From contig JBDHYC010000012.1 of the NCBI GenBank assembly GCA_039811165.1, forward strand, positions 19,090-83,089: a stretch of DNA of 64,000 nt, in the 5' to 3' direction. The DNA comes from Chitinophagaceae bacterium. Its GTDB lineage: Bacteria; Bacteroidota; Bacteroidia; Chitinophagales; Chitinophagaceae. Every line of letters starts with the position of its first letter. Within the stretch, counting starts at the first letter, position 1. The notes below the pieces were generated by a model. That model saw nothing but the letters and a program-made list of their open reading frames with translations. It ran no database searches and was not told the DNA's origin. A program made the position numbers and the translations under genes. This document shows, one piece after another, positions 3,055 to 26,029 of the stretch.

Positions 3055-4713
<1,659 letters not shown>

Positions 4714-12627: not shown

Positions 12628-14229
12628 ATGGATTGTAATGCTATACGAATTCCTTACCGGCAAACCGGTTTTTTCACCCGGACAGCCCTGGATTATATTG
12701 ACCAGGCGGATGCATTGAAATCTTTTTTCGTTCATCCTCCGTCTTTGCAGGGAATTCAAAAAGCAATTGAGGCAAGAAAAAGACATAAGGTGGACAGGGA
12801 AACACTGGTTCGGCACCTGAAAAGTCAATATCAATCCGTTTCTTCAGCAAAGGCAGTTCATGAAAATATAGAAGCATTACTTTCGGCTGATACTTTTACG
12901 GTCACCACTGCACATCAGCCCAATATTTTTACTGGCCCGTTATATTTTATTTATAAGATTCTGCATGCAATACGGCTGTCTGAGCATTTGAAAAAGCTAA
13001 TGCCGGAATATCGCTTTATCCCGGTTTACTATATGGGTTCCGAAGATGCTGACCTTGATGAGCTGGGACATATACACCTGGATGGACAAAAAATTGAATG
13101 GAACACCAAACAGACCGGTGCTGTGGGAAGAATGAAAATTGATAAAGAATTCATACAGATAATTTCCCGGATAGTAGGCTGTTTATCCGTCCTGCCCTTT
13201 GGTGAAGAGATTCTCTCCCTGGTAAAAAAGGCTTACAGGGAAAATGTTTCTGTCCAGGATGCGACATTTTATTTTGTTAATGAATTATTTGCTGAATACG
13301 GTTTGATTGTTCTCGTCGCAGACGATGCGTCATTAAAAAAGCCAATGACCGGGGTGTTTGAAGATGATCTCATGAATCAAAAGCCATCCCGGATCGTTGA
13401 AGGCACTGCCAAAGAACTGCAGGCAGCGGGATACAAGGTTCAGGCTCATCCCAGGGAAATCAATTTGTTTTATTTGAAAGATAATCTGAGGGAAAGAATA
13501 GTGGAGAAAAATTCACAATTCGCAATTCACAATTCACAATTGCAATTTAGTAAAGAGCAAATGTTGGAGGAGTTAGAAAAACATCCTGAACGTTTCAGCC
13601 CGAATGTGATTTTAAGAGGATTATTCCAGGAAACGATTTTACCCAATCTTGTTTTTATAGGTGGCGGTGGGGAACTGGCCTATTGGTTGCAGCTAAAAGA
13701 TCTTTTTCAGCAATACAGCGTACCCTTCCCGGTATTACTGCTCAGAAATTCGTTTTTGGTTGTTGAAAAGAAATGGCAGGACAAGATTCAGAAACTGGGT
13801 TTTACATCAGAAGATATTTTTTCAAAAGAGGAGGAACTCCTGAACCGACTTGTAAAAAGGGAGATTATAAATGATGTCGGGCTTAATGGAACTTATACCG
13901 AGACAGGGCAAATATATGATTCCGTAAAAAAGCAGGCTACAGCAATTGACAAAACATTATCTGCCCATGTTGATGCGCTGAAAACTCAGGCCTTGCACCG
14001 GCTTCATGAGCTTGAAAAAAAAATATTCCGTTCCGCAAAAAGAAAATTTACGGATCAGCAACGCATGATTGAATCTGTAAAAGGAAAATTATTTCCTTTG
14101 GATAGTTTGCAGGAACGCCAGGATAATTTTTTATCTTATTATGCCAAATGGGGGAAAGATTTTTTAAAAGAGCTGTATAAAAATTCGCTGACTACGGAAC
14201 AGGAATTTGTAGTGCTTTCCGAAAAGTGA
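12628..14229 (+). CDS. bshC: Bacillithiol biosynthesis cysteine-adding enzyme BshC
   Basis: 533 aa. The blocks HQPNIFTGPLYFIYKI, MGSEDADLDE and HPERFSPNVILRGLFQETILPN..GGGGELAYW match conserved B. subtilis BshC blocks as I recall them. Confidence 0.8.
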   Translation: MDCNAIRIPYRQTGFFTRTALDYIDQADALKSFFVHPPSLQGIQKAIEARKRHKVDRETLVRHLKSQYQSVSSAKAVHENIEALLSADTFTVTTAHQPNIFTGPLYFIYKILHAIRLSEHLKKLMPEYRFIPVYYMGSEDADLDELGHIHLDGQKIEWNTKQTGAVGRMKIDKEFIQIISRIVGCLSVLPFGEEILSLVKKAYRENVSVQDATFYFVNELFAEYGLIVLVADDASLKKPMTGVFEDDLMNQKPSRIVEGTAKELQAAGYKVQAHPREINLFYLKDNLRERIVEKNSQFAIHNSQLQFSKEQMLEELEKHPERFSPNVILRGLFQETILPNLVFIGGGGELAYWLQLKDLFQQYSVPFPVLLLRNSFLVVEKKWQDKIQKLGFTSEDIFSKEEELLNRLVKREIINDVGLNGTYTETGQIYDSVKKQATAIDKTLSAHVDALKTQALHRLHELEKKIFRSAKRKFTDQQRMIESVKGKLFPLDSLQERQDNFLSYYAKWGKDFLKELYKNSLTTEQEFVVLSEK

Positions 14230-14295
14230 TCCCGGTTGTTATAAAGTAACCTGTTTTTATTTTGTAGTTCAAAACGGTGATTTTTCAAAAAAAAT

Positions 14296-14385
14296 TTACT
14301 TTTTGTCTTGATACAAAAAGTAACAAAAAAATCAAGGCAAAACATCAGAAGTCTGGAAAATTGAGAAGACTGTTTGTTTTGCCTT
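14296..14385. repeat. Two strong hairpins in the bshC-CRISPR intergenic region
   Basis: The first has a perfect 11-bp stem, TTACTTTTTGT(14296-14306)/ACAAAAAGTAA(14313-14323). The second has an 11-bp stem, AAGGCAAAACA(14334-14344)/TGTTTTGCCTT(14375-14385), with inner AGTCT/AGACT pairing. Confidence 0.7.
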
Positions 14386-14531
14386 TGAGCAGTTCAGGTG
14401 TGGGATCGGCGCAGATATTCAATATTTTATTTTTAGAATTTTTATATTGAAAGGAGGGAATGCTGTACCTGGCCCTAAGCCTAACAAGCCGCCCTTATTT
14501 TATTATTTTTAAAATTTGACAAAAGCCCTGC

Positions 14532-14592
14532 TGTGAATTGATTTGCTTTCTCCCGAAGGCTTTCGGATTATGTGGCTTAACTCTTTAACAAT
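14532..14592 (+). repeat. Degenerate solitary CRISPR repeat (D1) with an internal hairpin insertion
   Basis: The sequence is TGTGAattgATTTGCTTTC + tcccgaaggctttcgga + TTATGTgGCTTAaCTCTTTAACAAt. Both flanks align to the 47-nt repeat. The central AAATTTTC is replaced by a CCGAA/TTCGG hairpin. Confidence 0.8.
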
Positions 14593-14625
14593 GGTAATTA
14601 AAACTTATTAATTAGTTTTACAATT

Positions 14626-14889
14626 ATGATTATTGATGCCAGAACAGTAAATTTTTTAAAAAAATTCTCAACCGAGAATGTTTATTTCGCATCCTCATTC
14701 CATGATGTATATTTTAAATGGGATATTAAAGAAAGGAAATATTACCAAAAGTTTAGGGGAATGGAAGAGACGCCTGTACAAAAAGGCAGCGATTTGCTTA
14801 TGGAGGCTATTTTGGACAGAAATGAAATTACAGAAGAGGAATACGAATCAGGTAGTAATTTAGTGTCAAGAGATAGGATTTGGCATTAA
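14626..14889 (+). CDS. Hypothetical 87-aa protein occupying the interval between two degenerate CRISPR repeats
   Basis: This ORF is in the track, is AT-rich and has an acidic C-terminal half. I recognise no family. Its stop codon (14887-14889) abuts the next repeat remnant. Confidence 0.45.
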   Translation: MIIDARTVNFLKKFSTENVYFASSFHDVYFKWDIKERKYYQKFRGMEETPVQKGSDLLMEAILDRNEITEEEYESGSNLVSRDRIWH

Positions 14890-15020
14890 TTGATAATTTG
14901 GTTTGCTTTCAAATTTTATGCTTGTCCGTCCGAAGCGATGCGAAGGCGGATAGCTTAGCTCTCATATCCCGACAGAATCGTCGGGAAGATTTGCCCGCCT
15001 GCATGACGCAGTCGGGCAGG
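14889..15020 (+). repeat. Disrupted CRISPR repeat remnants (D2) with inserted hairpin sequences
   Basis: aTTGaTAATTTGgtttGCTTTCAAATTTT-ATG (14889-14920) is followed by a 30-nt insert. Next comes TAGCTTAGCTCT (14951-14962, repeat positions 28-39), then a 58-nt insert. That insert contains the hairpins TCCCGAC/GTCGGGA (14967-14986) and GCCCGCCTGC/GCAGTCGGGC (14993-15017). Confidence 0.8.
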
Positions 15021-16746
15021 CTTTCAAATTTTCATGTAGCTTAGCTCTTTAACAACCTTTATTAATAATTTTAATAGTAAGAAAAAGTTGTGATTTGCTT
15101 TCAAATTTTCATGTAGCTTAGCTCTTTAACAACTTGGCAATCAATACGGCTGTGGCTGAAGCTGTTGTGATTTGCTTTCAAATTTTCATGTAGCTTAGCT
15201 CTTTAACAACGAATTGATCTCTCCACTCCCTTTAGGGGATGTTGTGATTTGCTTTCAAATTTTCATGTAGCTTAGCTCTTTAACAACCGGCTATTATCAA
15301 TCTATATGACATACACGGTTGTGATTTGCTTTCAAATTTTCATGTAGCTTAGCTCTTTAACAACAGAACCCTCTTTACAATGCACAGCAGTTTGTGTTGT
15401 GATTTGCTTTCAAATTTTCATGTAGCTTAGCTCTTTAACAACAATTACTGCTCCCGTTCCTTCACCGGAATGGTTGTGATTTGCTTTCAAATTTTCATGT
15501 AGCTTAGCTCTTTAACAACGCCAATAACGGCAAGGTTAATTACCCCTGCGTTGTGATTTGCTTTCAAATTTTCATGTAGCTTAGCTCTTTAACAACCTTC
15601 CTGTACCCTGCAACCCATCTACACAAGTTGTGATTTGCTTTCAAATTTTCATGTAGCTTAGCTCTTTAACAACGTCGGCTTCATCAAATGTTAGCACCAA
15701 TGGTTGTGATTTGCTTTCAAATTTTCATGTAGCTTAGCTCTTTAACAACTAATTGCAGGCTGCATGGTGCTTGGGTTGGTTGTGATTTGCTTTCAAATTT
15801 TCATGTAGCTTAGCTCTTTAACAACCTACCGGTGTCAATTAGCACTAATATATCAGTTGTGATTTGCTTTCAAATTTTCATGTAGCTTAGCTCTTTAACA
15901 ACTTATTTAATAATTGTTTTTCTTTTTTCAATGTTGTGATTTGCTTTCAAATTTTCATGTAGCTTAGCTCTTTAACAACAATAATAATCTCGGACTATTT
16001 ACTTGAGTGTTGTGATTTGCTTTCAAATTTTCATGTAGCTTAGCTCTTTAACAACTGCGTTGTTTGGGATTACGAATGGATAAAAGTTGTGATTTGCTTT
16101 CAAATTTTCATGTAGCTTAGCTCTTTAACAACTATAAAATATCTACCATCTTGAAATTGAAGTTGTGATTTGCTTTCAAATTTTCATGTAGCTTAGCTCT
16201 TTAACAACAGCGTTGACGTTAACTATCGTTAATGTATCGTTGTGATTTGCTTTCAAATTTTCATGTAGCTTAGCTCTTTAACAACCAAAATAAAACAATT
16301 ATCAAATGCAAAGGAGTTGTGATTTGCTTTCAAATTTTCATGTAGCTTAGCTCTTTAACAACTTGTAATATCCGTGAACAATCAGCTTTATGTTGTGATT
16401 TGCTTTCAAATTTTCATGTAGCTTAGCTCTTTAACAACCCACCGGAAAAAACAGGCAAGCGATAAGCAGTTGTGATTTGCTTTCAAATTTTCATGTAGCT
16501 TAGCTCTTTAACAACAGAAACAAAGAAAGCGTATGATGCAATACGGTTGTGATTTGCTTTCAAATTTTCATGTAGCTTAGCTCTTTAACAACGGAGTTGA
16601 TACCATTCCTGCAATGCTAACAGTTGTGATTTGCTTTCAAATTTTCATGTAGCTTAGCTCTTTAACAACAAAAGACCTATCAATGCTCCTATTCCTGTTG
16701 TTGTGATTTGCTTTCAAATTTTCATGTAGCTTAGCTCTTTAACAAC
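15021..16746 (+). CRISPR. CRISPR array: one 5'-truncated repeat, 22 identical 47-nt repeats and 22 spacers (type II-C, Bacteroidetes 47-nt class)
   Basis: The repeat is GTTGTGATTTGCTTTCAAATTTTCATGTAGCTTAGCTCTTTAACAAC, first at 15087-15133 and last at 16700-16746. The period is ~77 nt with unique 29-31-nt spacers. The truncated copy (repeat positions 12-47) is at 15021-15056. The strand is assigned from tracrRNA anti-repeat complementarity. Confidence 0.98.
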
Positions 16747-16804
16747 AGCTTATAGGCAAAACCTTGATAATACGGTATTTGAGCTGGGTTTTACAATCAA
16801 AAAA

Positions 16805-16829
16805 ATGGGTTTGACGACCCATTTTTTTA
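16805..16829 (+). terminator. Intrinsic terminator downstream of the last repeat
   Basis: The stem is ATGGGT(16805-16810)/ACCCAT(16817-16822), followed by T7 and preceded by an A-run, so it is potentially bidirectional. Confidence 0.65.
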
Positions 16830-16916
16830 TTCCTACCCCTTTTTCATATCCTTTCAACCAAAAAGAATCCAAGCCCCAACGGGGCAATCTGTTTATAGAA
16901 AATTGTAAATTCAAAC

Positions 16917-16939
16917 CCCGGCTCCGTAGGAGCCGCCTG
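16917..16939. repeat. REP-like hairpin upstream of the Y1 transposase gene
   Basis: CCCCGGCTCCGTAGGAGCCGCCTG, with stem GGCTCC/GGAGCC. Its flank GCCGCCTG is the inverse of the CAGGCGGC flank seen on the downstream REPs. Confidence 0.75.
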
Positions 16940-16959
16940 AATCATAAAGCTACCTGCCA

Positions 16960-17421
16960 ATGGCTAATACATTTTCACAAATCTACCTGCAATTTGTTTT
17001 TGCAGTGAAAGGGCGCCAGAATCTTATAGAAAAGAAGAATAAGGAAGAACTCCATAAATACATCACCGCCCTGGTACAAAACCGAAATGCCAAAATGCTG
17101 GCGATTCATTGTATGCCTGATCATACGCATATTTTTGTTGGGTTCAAACCCTCAGTTCTCATTTCAGATTTTATCAAAGAAATTAAAGTTGAGAGCAATG
17201 AATTTATCAACAGTAAAAAGTGGATTAAAGGCAGGTTCAGTTGGCAGGAGGGCTATGGGGTATTTTCCTATTCTCATTCACATATTGACCGGGTGGTAAA
17301 ATATGTGCTCAACCAGGAAGCCCATCACTATAAAAAGCCTTTCCGCCAGGAATATCTTGAATTACTTAAACGCTTTGAAATTCCTTTTGAAGAAAAATAT
17401 CTTTTTGATTTTTTGGATTGA
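16960..17421 (+). CDS. IS200/IS605-family Y1 HUH transposase-like protein, probable REP-associated tyrosine transposase (RAYT)
   Basis: 153 aa with HUH motif PDHTHIFVG and catalytic-Tyr helix VVKYVLNQEAHH. It is a single gene with no tnpB, flanked on both sides by GCTCC-N3-GGAGC hairpins. Confidence 0.85.
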   Translation: MANTFSQIYLQFVFAVKGRQNLIEKKNKEELHKYITALVQNRNAKMLAIHCMPDHTHIFVGFKPSVLISDFIKEIKVESNEFINSKKWIKGRFSWQEGYGVFSYSHSHIDRVVKYVLNQEAHHYKKPFRQEYLELLKRFEIPFEEKYLFDFLD

Positions 17422-17429
17422 TATGCAGG

Positions 17430-17946
17430 AAGCTCCACCGGAAACTAATCCAGCTATCTGATACAGGTTAAAAATATGGCACACCTACGTGATCGGTGTT
17501 GTATAAACAGGCGGCTCCGAAGGAGCCTTTGTCCTCTTATTTCATTTGGGCTACAAACACACAGCTCCTCCGGAGCCCGATTCAGCTATCTGTTACAGAT
17601 TATAAATACAGCGCTCCTACGGAGCGTAACGGTTTTGTCATATAAATTGCAATTGATGTACAGGCGGCTCCGATGGAGCCTTTGTCCTCTTATTTCGTCC
17701 GGGCTACAAACACGCAGCTCCTACGGAGCGTAACCCTGTAATTTGTTAACGTTTATAAACGTGATGCTCCTACTGAGCTTTGCATTTCTGTATTAAGAAG
17801 CAGATCGAAATGATTTCAATAGATGTGCAGGGGGCTCCGATGGAGCCTCGATCTCCTTATATTATCGGGGCTACAAACACGCAGCTCCTCCGGAGCCTGA
17901 TCCAGCTATCTGTTACAGTTTAAGATCACGACGCTCCTCCGGAGCA
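17430..17946. repeat. Cluster of about 10 REP hairpins (GCTCC-N3-GGAGC) arranged in three composite 70-120-bp units
   Basis: Hairpins lie at about 17432, 17513-17527, 17564-17576, 17612-17626, 17665-17680, 17717-17729, 17763-17778 (degenerate), 17833-17847, 17884-17896 and 17933-17945. The repeated linker is GGGCTACAAACAC...AGCTATCTGTTACAG. Confidence 0.9.
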
Positions 17947-17971
17947 TATCACAGCCTGGCTAAATAGTCTA

Positions 17972-18346
<375 letters not shown>

Positions 18347-18410
18347 TCACAGACCTGGTAGCTGTAACCGGCTGGCTGATTATTTTATTTTCCATATATG
18401 GTGATTCCAT

Positions 18411-19343
18411 TCATTCAAGGGTAGGGTATAAAATCTTTCTTGTTGTGCCTTCAAAACATTTTGCAAGTGATGCGGTGGTTCGCTGCACCGCATTCATCAT
18501 CGGGCTTTTTTCTCCGTTTATTTTTACATCCATTGCCGGGATCTCCAATAACATTTTTTTCATGGAGGGTGTCATTTCCAAAAATCTTCCATTATTTCGG
18601 ATGATCTGATATACTACCATATCCACATAAGGACGATAAGGTTCCATGATGTCGTCTGCTAAACAATAAGCATTGTATTGATTGCGGTGATGAATTCCGA
18701 GAGTTGGTAATAGTCCGCTTGCCACTAAGCTTCTTGCCACCAATGCTCTTAAAATTGCATAGCCATAATTCAAAAGATTATTGGGTGGCGGGCCGAAACG
18801 TTCTCTCCGGAATTCCAATTCTTCCGGAAAAATTCGTTTCCAATAATAAGCAGCGGCCTTAGCTTCATGATTTTCGCTGTCGCCGCTTTTTACATCAGTA
18901 GCATAGCGCAGAAGAATTTTGTTTTCTGTTCTTTGCCTGTTTAGCAATGCAGCCTGGTTTTCTATTTTGGAAATAATGGTTTGTTGCCATAATTGTTTTT
19001 TCAGCGGAACAGTGGCATCTATCTGCGCCTGGAATTTTTGGCTTTGAAGTGTATTACCATCAAGGCTTAGTAACATGCCTGCAGGGTGGTGGGTATTATC
19101 GCAGGTGATGACGGCGCTGTTGTTTGCTAATAGTTTTGCGAGTAATGCCTGCGTGATGGTGACCTGTTTATGATCGAGGATAAGCAGCCCAATATCTTCA
19201 ATGGGAATCGTTTTGGGTTCGGGTTTTATTTCTTCCTTTCCTTCAGGCAGGGTAACAGCAATGGCGGGAACTTCGACTACGAGTTGTTCGTTGGCGGTTT
19301 TGAGATAAGCGGGGTTACCAAAATATAGGGTTCGCTTTATCAC
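18411..19343 (-). CDS. cas1: CRISPR-associated endonuclease Cas1 (type II)
   Basis: 310 aa starting MIKRTLYFGNPAYL. Conserved GxHH (LGIHHRNQ) and acidic motifs are present. It lies adjacent to cas9 and cas2. Confidence 0.95.
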   Translation of the reverse strand: MIKRTLYFGNPAYLKTANEQLVVEVPAIAVTLPEGKEEIKPEPKTIPIEDIGLLILDHKQVTITQALLAKLLANNSAVITCDNTHHPAGMLLSLDGNTLQSQKFQAQIDATVPLKKQLWQQTIISKIENQAALLNRQRTENKILLRYATDVKSGDSENHEAKAAAYYWKRIFPEELEFRRERFGPPPNNLLNYGYAILRALVARSLVASGLLPTLGIHHRNQYNAYCLADDIMEPYRPYVDMVVYQIIRNNGRFLEMTPSMKKMLLEIPAMDVKINGEKSPMMNAVQRTTASLAKCFEGTTRKILYPTLE

Positions 19344-19451
19344 AGGATGATGGGTTTCTAAGGATAAAACGAAGAATGAGGGGATTTATTTTCTGTTATT
19401 TCCAAAGGGTTGCTTACCTTTTCATCGGCTTCTTTAAAGGAGTTAAAGACG

Positions 19452-22400
19452 TTAATTGTTTTTTGAGGGAGAAATGTTGCCGAGGCGGTCAACTTCCTTC
19501 CATTTAATTTCGCCGAGCAGAGAAATTTCAAAATCTTCATCCTCAATCAGAAAATTCCAGTTGTTACGACTTAAACCCAAGAGAGGAACAGGATTCTTAT
19601 CATTGATTACTGAGGACTCAGTTTTGTATTCTTCAATTTGCAATTTGAGCCTTTCAGCAAGATCGGAAGACGAATGTTGTTTTATAAGTTCAATCCGTTT
19701 ATCGAAATCATAAAGACGTTTTTCGAAGTCTTTATTCCTATCTGATGTATTGTTTATGTTTTCATTGGGAGTAATTTCTGGAATATCAAACTGTTTTTCG
19801 AATGGGCTTAATATCTTGCTCTTAGTTTGTTTAATAGATTTATCAATGTCCCCCTTTGCTCTCGATTCTAGATGACATTGTAGCATTATTTTGTTTCCAG
19901 TATAATGAAATTGTGTAATTCTGTATAACCTTTTTATCTGAAACTCTATTTCATTTATCTTCTCAAGTTCCGTATCATCGTTTAAAACAAAGACTTTTTG
20001 CCCCACTTTTAAAAGTTTTTTATCAGCATAATGATTGTATTCTGGGTAATACTCGCTGATAAGCCGATCTATTTCAAATTTGCTATTCTTTTTATACATC
20101 TTACCCAAATCAGTGGAAGCTATTGGTATCATTATTCGTTCTATCTTATCGTTATTAACATGTTGCAAGAATGCTGCATAAGGTAAGGAGCCGGCAGCTG
20201 AATAATAATTATTTTTGTAGTCATGTTTTGATTGATAATTGATTCGTTGTTTGACAATTTTTCCTGCGGTAGTTCTTATCCGAACGTGCCGTATTTCATT
20301 GCCTTGATGATCTTTTGGTTTCAGAATATTCTGTTGTTTTGAAATCAACTCTTGTATATCATGGTCAACAATATCATTAATGTATTTTTTTGCATCTTCT
20401 AAACTTACTCTTTCGGCAAAGAAAAATTCGTCTTTCCCGGTTTTAAATTTCCACTTTCCATCGTAAGTTCTTATTGGCTTATGTTGTTCATCCCGCTCAA
20501 CGTCTTTTAATTTAGCCAAAAATGTTTGCTTATAAAGTGTTGTTCGGATACTGTCACCTTTTGCAATTTTAGAAATTTTGCTTCCATTTTTGTCCAAAAC
20601 GTAATGCCCATTTATATCTTTTAAATAAACAAGCCTCCCTCTGCTACGAACAGTTTTATAAGTCCGTTTTAATATTTTATCTTTTTGGTAGTTTACTATC
20701 AACACCGAGTTTTCAATACTTTGTATTAATGCCTGGGAATTGAAGTTTTCGTATGGCATAACGGTAAACTGTCCTTTTTTTTGTTCCTGCCATTCATACA
20801 TAATTTTGAGCAAACGTTCCCGGTAACTAGCGTTGGTTGGTATCAAAGTTAGTACCGCAGCATCAATGGCATGGTGGGTATGCTTATTACGGTTTTTAAT
20901 TTCATCTTCTTCCTGGAAGCCATATATTTTACGAAAATCGGCAGTGACAATTCCCTTTTGCACTTTTACTCTATTGCTATATACTTTCTTTTCAAATGAT
21001 TCATTTTTGGTGGATTTGAAATATGTGCTTAAAAATTCCCGGGCATATTTTGAAATCATTTGTGTATCGGTGAGCTGTCTGCGAACCCAACTTTCTTTAA
21101 TTTCCTCGCAGGTAAAACGCTCTATTTTATCTGTCCAGTAGTCGAGGTGCATTTTGAAGTAGAGCTTGCTTTGGATGCGTTTATTTTTGTTTTCTTCGTC
21201 TTCCCCCGGTTTAGCTTTTTTATTCTCTTCATATAGTGTTTCGTAATGCTCTTTCAGTTCAATCCAGTTTTTAAGTCTTGGCTCAATGGCAGTACCCCAG
21301 CCCTCTTTATCTTTTGAGTAATTATCACATTGAGTTGGAAATTGGTTTTTCTTTTTATCACGATTATACCTGGCATAGCACACGGTTTGATTAGCCATGG
21401 TATTATCTGGTAATAAACTGCGGGGAATAGTGTGTTCAATATCAATTTCATTGGAAAATAGCTGGGTAATAGAAATCATTTTACCGGTGTACATGCACAT
21501 ACCTTTCTGCTCCATCCAAAGCTCATAGCGTTTTACCGCATCTTTTTGTTTAAGTATGTAGTCCCTTGTAGGTATCTCTTTCTCCTTTCCACTCTTTTCA
21601 TCTTTTATTTTGGTATTACCCAATATCTGTTCATTCCATAACTCAAAGTCTGCTATCCGATCATCTATGGTAATTTGAATATTTTCTTTTACTTTAAATT
21701 CTTCTAAAAACTTTCGAAAGAGGTCTCTTTTATTTTCACGATCTCGCTGATATCTCTCTATAGCAATTCGTTTGTTGTTATCATTCAATTCTCGGGCTAC
21801 TTCGATAACAATTTCAGTTTCTTCATCAATCTCGTCTTTTAATATCAATTCATTTAATAACTTCCTTAAAACGCAGAGAGCTTTATTAAACATTGGATTT
21901 TTAATACTGTCAATGAGTGGCACTGCAAGGATTTTCTTACTAGTATTTTTATCAATGATAGGAGGCTTGTATTTATTCTTCTGTTTGGAGTGGTGATATA
22001 ATAAGGTTGTATCAATGTTTACTTTCTGTTTCTTAAATTCTTTTTGAAGGATTTCATCCAGAGTAGGTGGCTGACAATAAGATCGTGTAGCATCTTCAAA
22101 AAATTGCTGGTAATGGCTTTTTACTGCATCAAAAAAAATATTTTTTTCGTCCTCGGATTTAGTATTCCATGTTTTTTCGCCAAAATGTTTGGTACAGGCA
22201 TTCTGTATATCATTCTCATCATCTTTTTGTAAACGATATGTTGTGTCTTTATAAGCAAACTTTTCACGGTTTTCTAAGCCTTTCCAGGCATCTATAAGGC
22301 TATTTGAAATGGTAGCGATAGTTTTGTCCCGGTTGTAAGCTGAATTAGCTTCTTTTATAGCAAGAAAGATATTTTCTTTTTCACTTTCCCAATTTTGACC

Positions 22401-22802
22401 AAGTAATTCAGGCATTTTTGCTAACAGTACAGCTTCATTATATAGATGACCTTTGCTTAAGAATGGGATAATTTTACTAATTGCTTTTATACTTAAATCT
22501 GAGAAGGATGAACCAATACTTTTCTTCAATTCAACGAACGGGTTATATATTTTTCCTTTTTTTGTTGTCTCATCTGGTATCATTAATTTTTGAACGGAAA
22601 AATATTTCAGGTAGGGTTCATCAAAACTGTAGAGTGCATGCCACAAATCAAGAACCGAGTATTTCTTAGCGATTATTTTAGGTGCTATTTGATGTTTAGT
22701 ATCATTTTTTGCAGCACCGCCAATTATATAATTATGTAATTGATTTAATTGCGTTTCAATTATTTCTCCAAAAATATCAATCAACCCTTTGCAAATTGGC
22801 AT
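19452..22802 (-). CDS. cas9: Cas9, C-terminal 1116-aa fragment (REC remainder, RuvC-II, HNH, RuvC-III, PI domain)
   Basis: It carries RuvC-II IVIEVAREL, HNH IDIEHTIPRS...N and RuvC-III HHAIDAAV. This frame is actually open upstream to nt 22916, through the A12 tract. Confidence 0.95.
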   Translation of the reverse strand: MPICKGLIDIFGEIIETQLNQLHNYIIGGAAKNDTKHQIAPKIIAKKYSVLDLWHALYSFDEPYLKYFSVQKLMIPDETTKKGKIYNPFVELKKSIGSSFSDLSIKAISKIIPFLSKGHLYNEAVLLAKMPELLGQNWESEKENIFLAIKEANSAYNRDKTIATISNSLIDAWKGLENREKFAYKDTTYRLQKDDENDIQNACTKHFGEKTWNTKSEDEKNIFFDAVKSHYQQFFEDATRSYCQPPTLDEILQKEFKKQKVNIDTTLLYHHSKQKNKYKPPIIDKNTSKKILAVPLIDSIKNPMFNKALCVLRKLLNELILKDEIDEETEIVIEVARELNDNNKRIAIERYQRDRENKRDLFRKFLEEFKVKENIQITIDDRIADFELWNEQILGNTKIKDEKSGKEKEIPTRDYILKQKDAVKRYELWMEQKGMCMYTGKMISITQLFSNEIDIEHTIPRSLLPDNTMANQTVCYARYNRDKKKNQFPTQCDNYSKDKEGWGTAIEPRLKNWIELKEHYETLYEENKKAKPGEDEENKNKRIQSKLYFKMHLDYWTDKIERFTCEEIKESWVRRQLTDTQMISKYAREFLSTYFKSTKNESFEKKVYSNRVKVQKGIVTADFRKIYGFQEEDEIKNRNKHTHHAIDAAVLTLIPTNASYRERLLKIMYEWQEQKKGQFTVMPYENFNSQALIQSIENSVLIVNYQKDKILKRTYKTVRSRGRLVYLKDINGHYVLDKNGSKISKIAKGDSIRTTLYKQTFLAKLKDVERDEQHKPIRTYDGKWKFKTGKDEFFFAERVSLEDAKKYINDIVDHDIQELISKQQNILKPKDHQGNEIRHVRIRTTAGKIVKQRINYQSKHDYKNNYYSAAGSLPYAAFLQHVNNDKIERIMIPIASTDLGKMYKKNSKFEIDRLISEYYPEYNHYADKKLLKVGQKVFVLNDDTELEKINEIEFQIKRLYRITQFHYTGNKIMLQCHLESRAKGDIDKSIKQTKSKILSPFEKQFDIPEITPNENINNTSDRNKDFEKRLYDFDKRIELIKQHSSSDLAERLKLQIEEYKTESSVINDKNPVPLLGLSRNNWNFLIEDEDFEISLLGEIKWKEVDRLGNISPSKNN

Positions 22803-22888
22803 AGTAGCTGCTGAGTGATCGTCTTTATAGTTGTATTGGTGTTCATTTTTTAGCTGTTTGTCAAGAAACTTTTTAATATCAGCAAACT

Positions 22889-23896
22889 TTACATTTTTTT
22901 TTTTTGAAGGAAGAAATTAGTATAGAGTTTATCCTTAATTTCCTTTGGCAGAAATTCCATGCTACCTGGAGCATTATTGTATTTAATTGTATTGATAAAC
23001 TGCCAGGCTCTGGAGATTTCAAAAAGTGGATGAGATACCGGGCACCTGGGGCGATCTTTTTCTAAAGTACACCTACCAATATTTCCTTTTTGACTTCTTA
23101 AGGGGCGTTGCCAGATAATTGATTTCCAGAATTGTTGCACTAAAGAATCTTGATAAGTACCCATTGCATTACGGCTAATGTCAAATTCTTGGGCTTTGCA
23201 GAGCTTTTCCAGTTCAGCCCTGTATTCTTTGCGAAGCGGATATTGATTTCTTGCCCTTTTCCCCTTGTCTAAAAATTCTTTTTTCAGCGCTTCAGCAATG
23301 GTTCTATTATTTTGTAGTGCTTGTGCAAAACCGTCTGCTTCTCTTCTTTCCAATTGCTTTTTTGTTTCGATATCTTTTTTGGCTTCGTCAATATTGAGTT
23401 CATCTGTATCAGATTCTCCAATATTTTTGTAACCTCTCCTTTGCACTAAATGATAAAGTGCCCGTCCCAATTCTTGCTTACTTACTTTGTTATCTAAAGC
23501 GAAGACTCTTAATTCGTATGGATTTTTATAATTTCTGCCATTTTGATAAGTAAAATCGCATGCCAGCCATTTTTGAAATAACCCGTTTTCGGGAAATTTT
23601 TGTAACTGACCTTTTTTATAGTTGCTCCAAATTTCAAGCTCATTCTTTTGTAATGGAGTATAATCATTTTTAATAAGAACTTTGAGCAGCTCCCATTTTC
23701 TGTATTTACGTGCCTGTATTAATCTCCTTTTGGATCGAGCTTCTCTTCTTTCTTTAGCGGGGGAAGTATATCCTCCAGTACCTTTTACCATACCAGACTC
23801 AAAGGTTATCACGCCTGTTTTGATACTGTTATCTTCATTTCTTAGTGCCCATCCGATTGATGAACTTCCCAAGTCTAGACCCAAAATTTTGTTCAT
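22889..23896 (-). CDS. cas9: Cas9, N-terminal 335-aa fragment (RuvC-I, Arg-rich bridge helix, start of REC)
   Basis: It starts MNKILGLDLGSSSIGWAL (RuvC-I Asp) and carries the bridge helix RREARSKRRLIQARKYRK. It ends ...FFLQKKKM*, immediately after the A12 run (22894-22905). Confidence 0.95.
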   Translation of the reverse strand: MNKILGLDLGSSSIGWALRNEDNSIKTGVITFESGMVKGTGGYTSPAKERREARSKRRLIQARKYRKWELLKVLIKNDYTPLQKNELEIWSNYKKGQLQKFPENGLFQKWLACDFTYQNGRNYKNPYELRVFALDNKVSKQELGRALYHLVQRRGYKNIGESDTDELNIDEAKKDIETKKQLERREADGFAQALQNNRTIAEALKKEFLDKGKRARNQYPLRKEYRAELEKLCKAQEFDISRNAMGTYQDSLVQQFWKSIIWQRPLRSQKGNIGRCTLEKDRPRCPVSHPLFEISRAWQFINTIKYNNAPGSMEFLPKEIKDKLYTNFFLQKKKM

Positions 23897-23931
23897 AATA
23901 TTTTAAGTTTTAAAATTCTTCATATATTTAT

Positions 23932-24022
23932 ACCGAAAGACAAATCACAACAAGGCTATAAGCCGCAGATTTACTTTCTGAGCGACTGCTTGAATAAAAT
24001 CGGTAGTCGCTAATTTTTTTTT
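23932..24022 (+). ncRNA. tracrRNA: tracrRNA (predicted), divergent from cas9
   Basis: The anti-repeat GAAAGaCAAATCACAAC (23934-23950) is complementary to repeat positions 1-16 with one bulged A. It is followed directly by the nexus-like AAGGCTATAAGCCG (GGCT/AGCC hairpin, 23952-23965). The terminator stem is AGCGACTGC(23981-23989)/GGTAGTCGCT(24002-24011) plus T9. The 5' end is approximate. Confidence 0.85.
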
Positions 24023-24176
24023 GAATACTATCTCTTTGCAGAACCATTCAGCTTTTAACAGGGAGCAGGAAGGATAATAAATATAGGCAATTTAAAGTTT
24101 TTGCTAAAGAAAAAAAATGATTATTCTTTGCAATGGCAATGCTTTTATAGAGGAATTTGTTGGTGAAAGATATGAT

Positions 24177-24689
24177 TCAATCAAATTGATTCTCCCAACC
24201 TTCTTTCTTTAGCTTCTCCACTTTTTCTATTACCTCGTTGTTAAGAGAGTTTTTATAAATAGCAATCTTTTGGGAGATGGTTTCATCGGAAGCACCGAGT
24301 ATTTCAGCAGCCAGTATTCCTGCATTTTTTGCTGCATTGAGTGCAACGGTGGCAACAGGTACACCATTGGGCATTTGGAGAATGGAAAGCACCGAATCCC
24401 AACCGTCAATGGAATTGGAAGATTTAATGGGAACACCAATTACCGGCAAAGTGGTTACCGATGCTACCATACCGGGAAGATGGGCAGCACCACCGGCTCC
24501 TGCAATGATTACTTTCAATCCTCTTTCTTTTGCTTTTTGGGCATAGTCCACCATCCGGAGCGGAGTACGATGAGCAGATACCACCGTTACTTCATTAGGT
24601 ATATCAAATTGTTTTAAAATATCGGCAGCGGCTTGCATAATATTGAGATCGCTGTCGCTGCCCATGATGATGCCGACTAAAGGATTCAT
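24177..24689 (-). CDS. purE: N5-carboxyaminoimidazole ribonucleotide mutase
   Basis: 170 aa starting [11 protein letters not shown], with the SAHRTP motif and GGAAHLPG. Confidence 0.95.
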
Positions 24690-24712
24690 GGCGCAAAGAA
24701 ACAGTAAAAAAA

Positions 24713-26029
24713 TTACTTTACTAAGTCTCCTTTTAAACTTAATAATTGAGTTTCTGCAAGTTTAGTATTGTAGCGGGCAGAAATGAGGCGGGTATATGCG
24801 TTTTCCAGGCTTCTTTGTGCTTCACGAAGTTGTAACAGCGTTGCTGCCCCTAATTTATAGGTTTGAAAAACAATATCAACGTTTTCTTTTGCAAGTAAGA
24901 TATTGGATTCTTCCAGGGCTAGCTCTTTTTTTTGTTGCTCGTAATTTTTAAAGGCTGTGAGAACACTTAAATTGATCTGCGATCTCTGATTTTCATAAAT
25001 TAATTCCTGGTATTGTATATCAAGTTTCGCTTGTTGAACAAGACGCTTTGTATTAAAGTTGTTGAAAATGGGAATAGTAGCTGTGATGCCGTAATTAAAT
25101 CCGCTTGATCTGTTATAGAGGGTTGAAAAAGAATTGATGACGGCCTGGTTTTTATTGCGGTTAAAATTATAAGCGGAATTCAGGGAAACTGTTGGAAAAC
25201 CGAGGGCCTTTGTTTCCTTTAATGTCAGGTTGGAGATATCAACGTTTTTTTTCAAAGTCAGAAGTAAAGGATTGCTTTTGTCAATACCTGTTTGAATTTC
25301 TCCAAGGCTAATGTCTTTATTAAGGGGGATGGTATCACTTACCTCAAATATAGTTTCGGCTGTAATGTTCATCACCTGGCTCAATTGATCTTTCAATTGG
25401 CTGATCAGGGTTTGCTGGCTGAGTTGTGCAGCTTTCTGGGCATTCAGGTCCACTTTACTTTGCAGCACATCCGGCTTTGCCCCTGATCCGATATCCAGTT
25501 TATATTGGGCAAGTTTTACCTGCTCTTCATTAATAGCCATCTGTTCTTCAATAGCTTTCAGTTGTTGTTTTTGCCTTACGATATTATAATAGATGGTAAT
25601 CACATTAGCCACTGTATTTACCAACTGGGTTTTTATTCCAAGCTCTCCCAGTTTTAAATACTCTGCTGCTTTATCTCTTGTGGCAAACATTTTTAATCCG
25701 TCGAACAAAGTCCAGTTTAATGCAAGGCTGGCAGCAATATTGTTCGACCGTAACCCGCTGCTTTCCCTTTTGGTACCGTCAAACAGGATTTGTTTTGTAC
25801 TGTTATTATTCCATGTTGTTCCCAGGTTACCGTTCAGCCTTGGTAGAAAAGCTGCATTTCGATAGGAATAGTTTAACGCAGCAACCAGGGAATCATTTTT
25901 TGACAATTGGATATCATAATTGTTTTGTAATGCAGTGGCAACTGCTTCTTCAATAGTTAGCAACCGTTGTGCCGGTACAGTGATGGCTGTAAATAGTAAG
26001 CCTGTCAGTATGATTGTAAATTTTCTCAT
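24713..26029 (-). CDS. TolC-family outer membrane efflux protein
   Basis: 438 aa with a signal peptide and the duplicated coiled-coil/OEP architecture. It lies adjacent to the RND pump. Confidence 0.85.

Follow-up and report, generated by a model that had tools for sequence, protein, structure and literature searches.

We analysed 64,000 nt of contig JBDHYC010000012.1 from an uncultured Chitinophagaceae bacterium (this whole stretch is referred to as the window), which carries a type II-C CRISPR-Cas locus whose cas9 gene is broken at a run of 12 A residues (A12) on the minus strand. The A12 frameshift is a real allele, and on balance we favour the view that it represents a recent inactivation at a mutational hot spot, with a predicted leak of full-length Cas9 that is not under selection. 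One base would have been lost within Lys-rich codons of cas9, and the resulting genetically OFF allele would then have become fixed in a near-clonal population. An original prediction made from the sequence of the window had named plain inactivation only as an outcome that would count against its own proposals; a recent hot-spot mutation is now the most likely account, with the amendment that some full-length protein is predicted to leak from the OFF allele. There is no indication of selection for the arrangement as an on/off switch.

The A12 tract (T12 on the plus strand) lies at 22894-22905 in a window of 39% G+C, in which no other homopolymer is longer than 9. The minus strand reads ...AAT TTC TTC CTT CAA AAA AAA AAA ATG TAA AG across the break, with the TAA stop at 22891-22889, one codon past the tract. 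The N-terminal open reading frame (ORF; 22889-23896, minus strand) encodes 335 aa ending in ...LQKKKM and comprises RuvC-I, the bridge helix and the start of the REC lobe. It contains the RuvC-I Asp (LGLDLGSSSIGWA) and the Arg-rich bridge helix, and matches positions 2-321 of TIGR01865 (Cas9 equivalog, E 2e-56). The C-terminal reading frame (19452-22916, minus strand), which is -1 relative to the N-terminal ORF, is open from 22916 and has its first ATG at 22802. The 1116-aa ORF starting there (19452-22802, minus strand) holds RuvC-II, HNH and RuvC-III, with Pfam matches to HNH_4 and RuvC_III, and matches positions 447-1034 of TIGR01865. With an offset of -1 from the N-terminal to the C-terminal frame, one extra A in the DNA or mRNA, or a -1 ribosomal slip, corrects the frame: A13 gives one ORF of 1481 aa and A10 one of 1480 aa, each with a single stop. 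The motifs D8, IVIEVARE, DIEHTIP and HHAIDA are visible in the fused protein, which has no second stop or indel, and the sole strain variant seen was K84Q of the C-terminal ORF. These observations bear out the original description of a cas9 gene split at this tract, with the N-terminal frame closing just past it and the other frame open from 22916, a continuous protein of about 1480 aa with A13 or A10, and the catalytic motifs (RuvC-I, HNH and RuvC_III) present without a further lesion; cas9 is intact only after frame correction.

The reproducibility of the tract was examined in Logan contigs (assemblies of individual SRA runs), NCBI metagenome-assembled genomes (MAGs), JGI metagenomes and a collection of 15 billion proteins. 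The 335-aa product ending in ...LQKKKM, which is possible from exactly A12 only, was present on 47 contigs (61 index blocks), including two NCBI MAGs (MBS1633552.1, locus tag JST10_13375, which corresponds to this window, and MBS1620237.1). The products expected from A8, A9, A10, A11, A13, A14 and A15 were absent from the 15-billion-protein collection. A12-carrying contigs came from SRR11845619, SRR16642405/427 and SRR25528452/463, representing at least three run series, and all five contigs read across the site had A12. The same strain was also placed by its flanking genes in SRR10848501, SRR25528462/471 and SRR30183947. Over 4-7 kb the contigs were 99.96-100% identical to the window, with 0-2 strain-level differences across the cas9 region. 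No full-length match of >80% identity to the fused Cas9 was found, and a search with the fused protein among GTDB representatives found no relatives. The DNA pattern of the tract, allowing for variable A length, had no match in GTDB genomes or JGI metagenomes. The assembly error that had originally been offered as one explanation is thus unlikely, as the A12-only product recurs on contigs from several run series and in two MAGs, and no product of another tract length exists in the collection. The OFF allele was the majority in every sample where the gene assembled, and switching is unsupported.

Comparison with relatives showed that the long tract is not a feature of the family. We identified approximately 120 full-length Cas9 orthologs with 52-80% identity, several of them named as Chitinophagaceae or Bacteroidota, relative to which the cas9 ORF of the window is disrupted in the manner of a pseudogene. 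The A13 reconstruction aligned gaplessly to 38 orthologs over the junction (FFLxKxKNVKF), where all 38 were single ORFs; the reconstructed FFLQKKKNVKF corresponds to FFLKKDKNVKF, FFLKKNKNVKF, FFIRKEKNVKF and others, and the A10 product is one residue short at this point. None of these 38 closest aligned orthologs had a frameshifted organisation. The DNA at the tract was read in four full-length orthologs of 76-80% identity (L006, L007, L008 and L011), in which the site is AGA AAA GAA AAA AAT, AAA AAA GGA AAA AAT, AAA AAA AAT AAA AAT and AGA AAA AAC AAG AAT, respectively. The long repeat is not retained in any of the four, each being interrupted, with a maximum of A8. This suggests that the region was ancestrally A-rich but interrupted, and that the long tract is specific to this strain. 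The comparison of the tract in orthologous cas9 genes, which had been proposed originally, therefore showed that an A-rich site is common, but not that a long tract is. The GTA AAG codons that lie behind the immediate TAA are present in three of the four orthologs read; the stop follows from these codons after a -1 shift, and so is not an evolved feature.

The sequence of the orthologs suggests two possible routes to the A12 allele. Loss of a single interrupting base (CAA AAA GAA/AAT AAA AAT to CAA AAA AAA AAA AT) would be the first. Such a one-base deletion makes both the frameshift and the C-A12-T sequence in one step, and the tract may therefore be the product of the inactivating mutation. 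Alternatively, a substitution could have created a short-lived A13, which then underwent a -1 slip. A12 arose in 41 of 100 dinucleotide-preserving shuffles of the window, and so composition alone does not make the tract improbable. The A/T runs actually present in the window number 57 of length 7, 13 of length 8, three of length 9, none of length 10 or 11 and one of length 12; extrapolation of this decay would predict about 0.05 runs of 12 or more, which suggests that A12 is an outlier against the real distribution. When the longest ORFs were mapped across the 64 kb, no gene other than cas9 was visibly split, and the break in cas9 coincides with A12. A further A9 run on the cas9 strand (24014-24022) precedes the start codon of cas9 by approximately 120 nt, in what is probably the promoter region.

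Leakage from the OFF allele is predicted, since the lesion left an A12 run and RNA polymerase favours the addition of one A. The run exceeds the length of about 9 A/T from which programmed transcriptional slippage, as in Thermus dnaX, IS elements and tssM1, is considered, and one additional A reaches the 1481-aa frame. At the scale of the transcriptome, insertions of a single base are the predominant event in A/T runs, and their frequency increases exponentially as the run becomes longer (PMC5574713). In Citrobacter rodentium tssM1, where A11 precedes a premature stop, transcriptional addition of one A leads to approximately 20% full-length protein (PMC4256274), and a frameshifted mod gene fragment containing a simple sequence repeat (SSR) kept low, heterogeneous expression (bioRxiv 10.64898/2026.04.01.715767). 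By analogy, the main product of the A12 allele would be the 335-aa N-terminal fragment, and RNA polymerase adding one A within the run would give a minority of full-length 1481-aa Cas9, perhaps 5-25% by extrapolation from Enterobacteria. Ribosomes reportedly slide on iterated AAA codons (Koutmou et al. 2015), which might add to the leak, and replication slippage would be expected to cause reversion to A13 at a low rate. A slippage-dependent leak is thus plausible mechanistically, and there is no sign of selection for the predicted leak.

Programmed -1 ribosomal frameshifting was considered separately. The slippery heptamer A AAA AAA is present in the 0 frame within CAA AAA AAA AAA ATG. However, no stimulatory structure was detected downstream: the 114 nt following the site have a folding energy of -11.5 kcal/mol, weaker than the mean of -15.1 kcal/mol for shuffled sequences (z +1.2), and the 121 nt surrounding the site likewise show no advantage over shuffles (z +0.9), this examination being of downstream structure, with no search made for an upstream Shine-Dalgarno-like element. 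With no stimulator and no conservation of the frameshifted arrangement, this mechanism was set aside.

The best of the competing explanations, which we nevertheless consider unlikely, is that cas9 is a functional contingency or low-dose locus. A12/A13 phase variation, constitutive transcriptional slippage, or both, would keep Cas9 stochastic or scarce, either by selection or simply in effect, and the system would still give immunity and acquire spacers. The gene has the form that this requires, with a simple repeat inside the ORF whose length sets the frame (A13 or A10 restores it), and with A12 in the coding strand, where addition of one A is the correction needed. Apart from the frameshift, cas9, cas1 and cas2 are free of lesions, the CRISPR repeats are perfect and a candidate trans-activating CRISPR RNA (tracrRNA) is present. 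tssM1 provides a precedent for a functional gene rescued by slippage, and in a second lineage (L023) the homologous site carries a -1 frameshift within an A8 run. However, tract length was invariant in the 47 contigs, no ON product was found anywhere in the collection, the tract is not conserved in orthologs and the site has no stimulatory element; the clonal population offers no evolutionary depth, and the L023 case comes from one contig, which extends 58 nt beyond the stop. A search of the full-text literature found no report of a phase-variable or slippage-dependent cas9, and literature searches with the run or MAG accessions likewise gave no relevant result. Phase variation at the DNA level, as originally proposed, is therefore unsupported, there being no tract-length polymorphism, no ON allele and no long tract in the closest orthologs.

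Several points nonetheless weigh against recent inactivation, and one of them, which also favours a functional locus, concerns the CRISPR array. MAG GCA_018267495.1 (L015) has the same A12 allele (identical 335-aa product) and identical flanks but a different leader-proximal spacer: TAATATCTCGGCAAACTGATAATAATACCT at positions 44-73 of L015, which is absent from the window array, compared with AAAAGACCTATCAATGCTCCTATTCCTGTT at 16670-16699 of the window. Spacer acquisition in type II-A systems requires Cas9. If the same holds for this locus, and if the two arrays diverged only after the frameshift arose, the frameshifted gene must have yielded some Cas9. However, the difference is of one spacer in one contig, and could also reflect loss of a spacer, recombination or a sweep of the A12 allele in the recent past. 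In addition, the lack of a second lesion and the 22 perfect repeats fit selective maintenance as well as they fit recency, and the 47 carrying contigs represent one near-clonal strain and are therefore technical replicates, not evolutionary ones. Tract length was read at the level of consensus sequences, with minority A13 sub-populations below resolution, and the slippage rates used derive from Enterobacteria, not Bacteroidota.

A broader form of the contingency idea is that Bacteroidota type II-C Cas9 has a recurrent slippage switch in the Lys-rich A tract where the REC lobe begins, which we regard as doubtful. In this strain, production of Cas9 would then depend entirely on A13 transcripts or on the rare cells that revert to A13, and immunity would be low-dose or bistable, a consequence that we hold to be just as doubtful. 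The differing leader-end spacers in the two A12 MAGs and the A8 frameshift of L023 are compatible with such a switch. 

The favoured reading of a mutational weak spot draws support from other broken cas9 genes. A search with the N-terminal fragment identified 108 other short N-terminal pieces of Cas9, many of them cut by contig ends. Roughly 25 of the 108 were judged to have non-homologous, frameshift-like tails, and in five fragments such tails start at reference residues 330-333, within the Lys-rich codons. In L023 (JGI Ga0256747, approximately 4270-4285) the homologous codons read CGA AAA AAA ATG G, and the frameshift is correctable by one extra A. In L024, a Tara Oceans scaffold found in two samples, approximately 26 nt are deleted (approximately 1125-1150), with loss of KKxKNFKFE. 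The lesions of L023 and L024 are independent of that in the window. The cas9 genes of L021/L022 are shredded into numerous fragments, and the break near this site lies in an adjacent T run, a pattern typical of error-prone assembly or heavy decay. In L017, an ortholog with 77% identity, cas9 is interrupted by an in-frame TGA and, distally, by a frameshift. Decay of cas9 is thus common in the clade, and the cluster of Lys-rich codons is a preferred breaking point.

We judge it very unlikely that the frameshift is a sequencing or assembly artefact, with the true genome carrying A13 or an interrupted in-frame tract and an intact cas9. Homopolymers of 12-13 are error-prone in PCR-amplified libraries, related public cas9 loci such as L021/L022 and L017 are visibly shredded by errors, and one Logan contig of this strain (P0123) has an A5-to-A4 indel variant elsewhere in cas9. 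Set against this, independent assemblers (Logan k-mer contigs of many runs and the two submitted MAGs) gave exactly A12, no assembly yielded another tract length, and the 16 A/T runs of 8-9 in the window, including two A9 runs inside ORFs, break no ORF. The P0123 contig (1863 nt, corresponding to approximately 19700-19760 of the window) contains a C-terminal piece of cas9 whose tail (...NKDFE|NVFMISINGLNL) fits a 1-nt loss in a short A run, as either a low-coverage error or a minor variant.

A natural two-piece Cas9, with the 335-aa and 1116-aa products both translated and assembling into an active enzyme, is scarcely credible, in agreement with its original description as a remote option: both ORFs are intact, engineered split Cas9 can reassemble, and the break falls in the REC lobe rather than in a catalytic domain (near residue 300 in an alignment with the 1082-aa Cas9 of PDB 9ar4), but no start codon is available to the C-terminal ORF until 38 codons beyond the break, and the conserved stretch of 38 residues that separates the tract from the Met at 22802 (NVKFADIKKFLD...YNYKDDHSAAT), among the best conserved in the family, would be lost from both stand-alone products; moreover, no ortholog is so organised, and the frames overlap with a 1-nt offset rather than forming two separated genes.

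The remainder of the locus is that of a type II-C system, as TIGR01865 matches both halves of Cas9 and the only other cas genes are cas1 and cas2, with neither csn2 nor cas4. cas1 (type II, NMENI subtype; 18411-19343, minus strand) matches PF01867 and TIGR03639 (E 1e-89), and cas2 (17972-18346, minus strand) matches PF09827 and TIGR01573. The CRISPR array (15010-16757) contains 22 identical repeats, as had been noted originally, each of 47 nt, and a terminal repeat truncated to 37 nt; the 22 spacers are 29-31 nt long. No self-targeting spacers were found against the 64-kb window, and three leader-end spacers had no exact protospacer match in IMG/VR. Beside the last full repeat is a leader-like flank followed by a hairpin with T-runs (16758-16860); this flank carries the sequence AGCTTATAGGC. 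By-eye comparison showed this flank to be partly conserved in the related locus L016, and it probably acts as the leader. At the other end of the array, inspection of the sequence identified a putative tracrRNA (14895-15056, plus strand), with an anti-repeat split by an inserted hairpin (GGTTTGCTTTCAAATTTTATG ... TAGCTTAGCTCT) and two GC-rich hairpins, which runs into the truncated repeat. Rfam detected no tracrRNA or other RNA family within 13000-25000. The layout of the candidate tracrRNA implies minus-sense CRISPR RNAs and a leader at the end of the array that faces cas2.

An IS200-like Y1 transposase gene (16960-17421, plus strand; PF01797, E 5e-24) lies between cas2 and the array. In L007 (9122-9583) a Y1 gene with 88% identity occupies the same place and orientation and is more conserved than cas9 (80%), and in L023 (2044-2490) a Y1 gene with 35% identity is located upstream of cas9. 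The Y1 gene seems to accompany these type II-C loci as a conserved element rather than to be a recent IS insertion. In L016 (positions 1-250; JGI Ga0187894_10051550, 79%-related) the same 47-nt repeat adjoins cas2 with no Y1 transposase, and the repeat nearest cas2 has a point mutation (CAACTTTT). A scan of JGI metagenomes for the 47-nt repeat found one short contig, from a 79%-related organism and without cas9. An 87-aa ORF beside the array (14626-14889, plus strand) has a precomputed Pfam match to PF24154 (Tis1_ImmP) and is present in all contigs of the strain. In Logan contigs from many runs (L012-L014 and L018) the truncated repeat is joined directly to the leader flank, with all 22 spacers skipped. 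These joins are probably de Bruijn collapse at k=31, the alternative being a real array-less variant formed by recombination between repeats.

Frameshift at a homopolymer in an otherwise intact gene is a known kind of event, and the cas9 allele can be compared with several established systems. It resembles C. rodentium tssM1 and Yersinia pseudotuberculosis tssM3 in having a stretch of 11-12 A closely followed by a premature stop and, as in tssM1, distal domains in the frame reached by addition of one A in the mRNA, so that truncated and full-length products are both expected. However, both tssM1 products have been demonstrated and are required, whereas those of the cas9 allele are predicted from its sequence, orthologs lack its tract, and no role is known for the truncated Cas9 fragment. 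A hypermutable repeat within an ORF also sets the frame in SSR contingency genes for defence, such as type III mod and type I hsdS/hsdM of Neisseria, Haemophilus, Campylobacter and Mycoplasma. Those loci are polymorphic within and between isolates and their repeats are conserved across strains, whereas here all 47 of 47 contigs have the same length and relatives lack the tract. Endosymbiont genes of Buchnera and Blochmannia are said to contain frameshifts in poly(A) tracts that are partly corrected by polymerase infidelity (Tamas et al. 2008). The cas9 allele is similar to these in that its frameshift lies at a run of at least 10 A, the gene is intact in other respects, and slippage might rescue it without a dedicated signal, but those genomes are AT-rich, with many such tracts and weak selection, unlike the 39% G+C window with its single long run. 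Compared with other Bacteroidota type II-C loci (Cas9 of approximately 1450 aa and 47-nt repeats), the window has the same cas9-cas1-cas2 arrangement, and differs in its frameshifted cas9 and in the conserved Y1 transposase gene between cas2 and the array. The lesion therefore resembles both slippage-rescued genes and SSR contingency loci, but shows neither the polymorphism nor the conservation of the tract seen in those systems, nor a conserved frameshifted organisation.

If it is nothing more than a fresh inactivating mutation, the allele represents ordinary CRISPR-Cas loss, and identifies the A-rich cluster of Lys codons as a weak point of Bacteroidota cas9 genes, at which these genes break repeatedly and after breakage of which annotation pipelines call two "hypothetical proteins". 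The recurrence of the same strain in many public sequencing runs, over several series, makes the case unusually testable. If the predicted leak or reversion is used by the bacterium, contingency or slippage control, which is well known for restriction-modification and surface genes, would extend to Cas9. A true switch would be the first contingency-type control of a cas9 gene, and would bear on how bacteria may limit the cost and autoimmunity of CRISPR while retaining the memory array.

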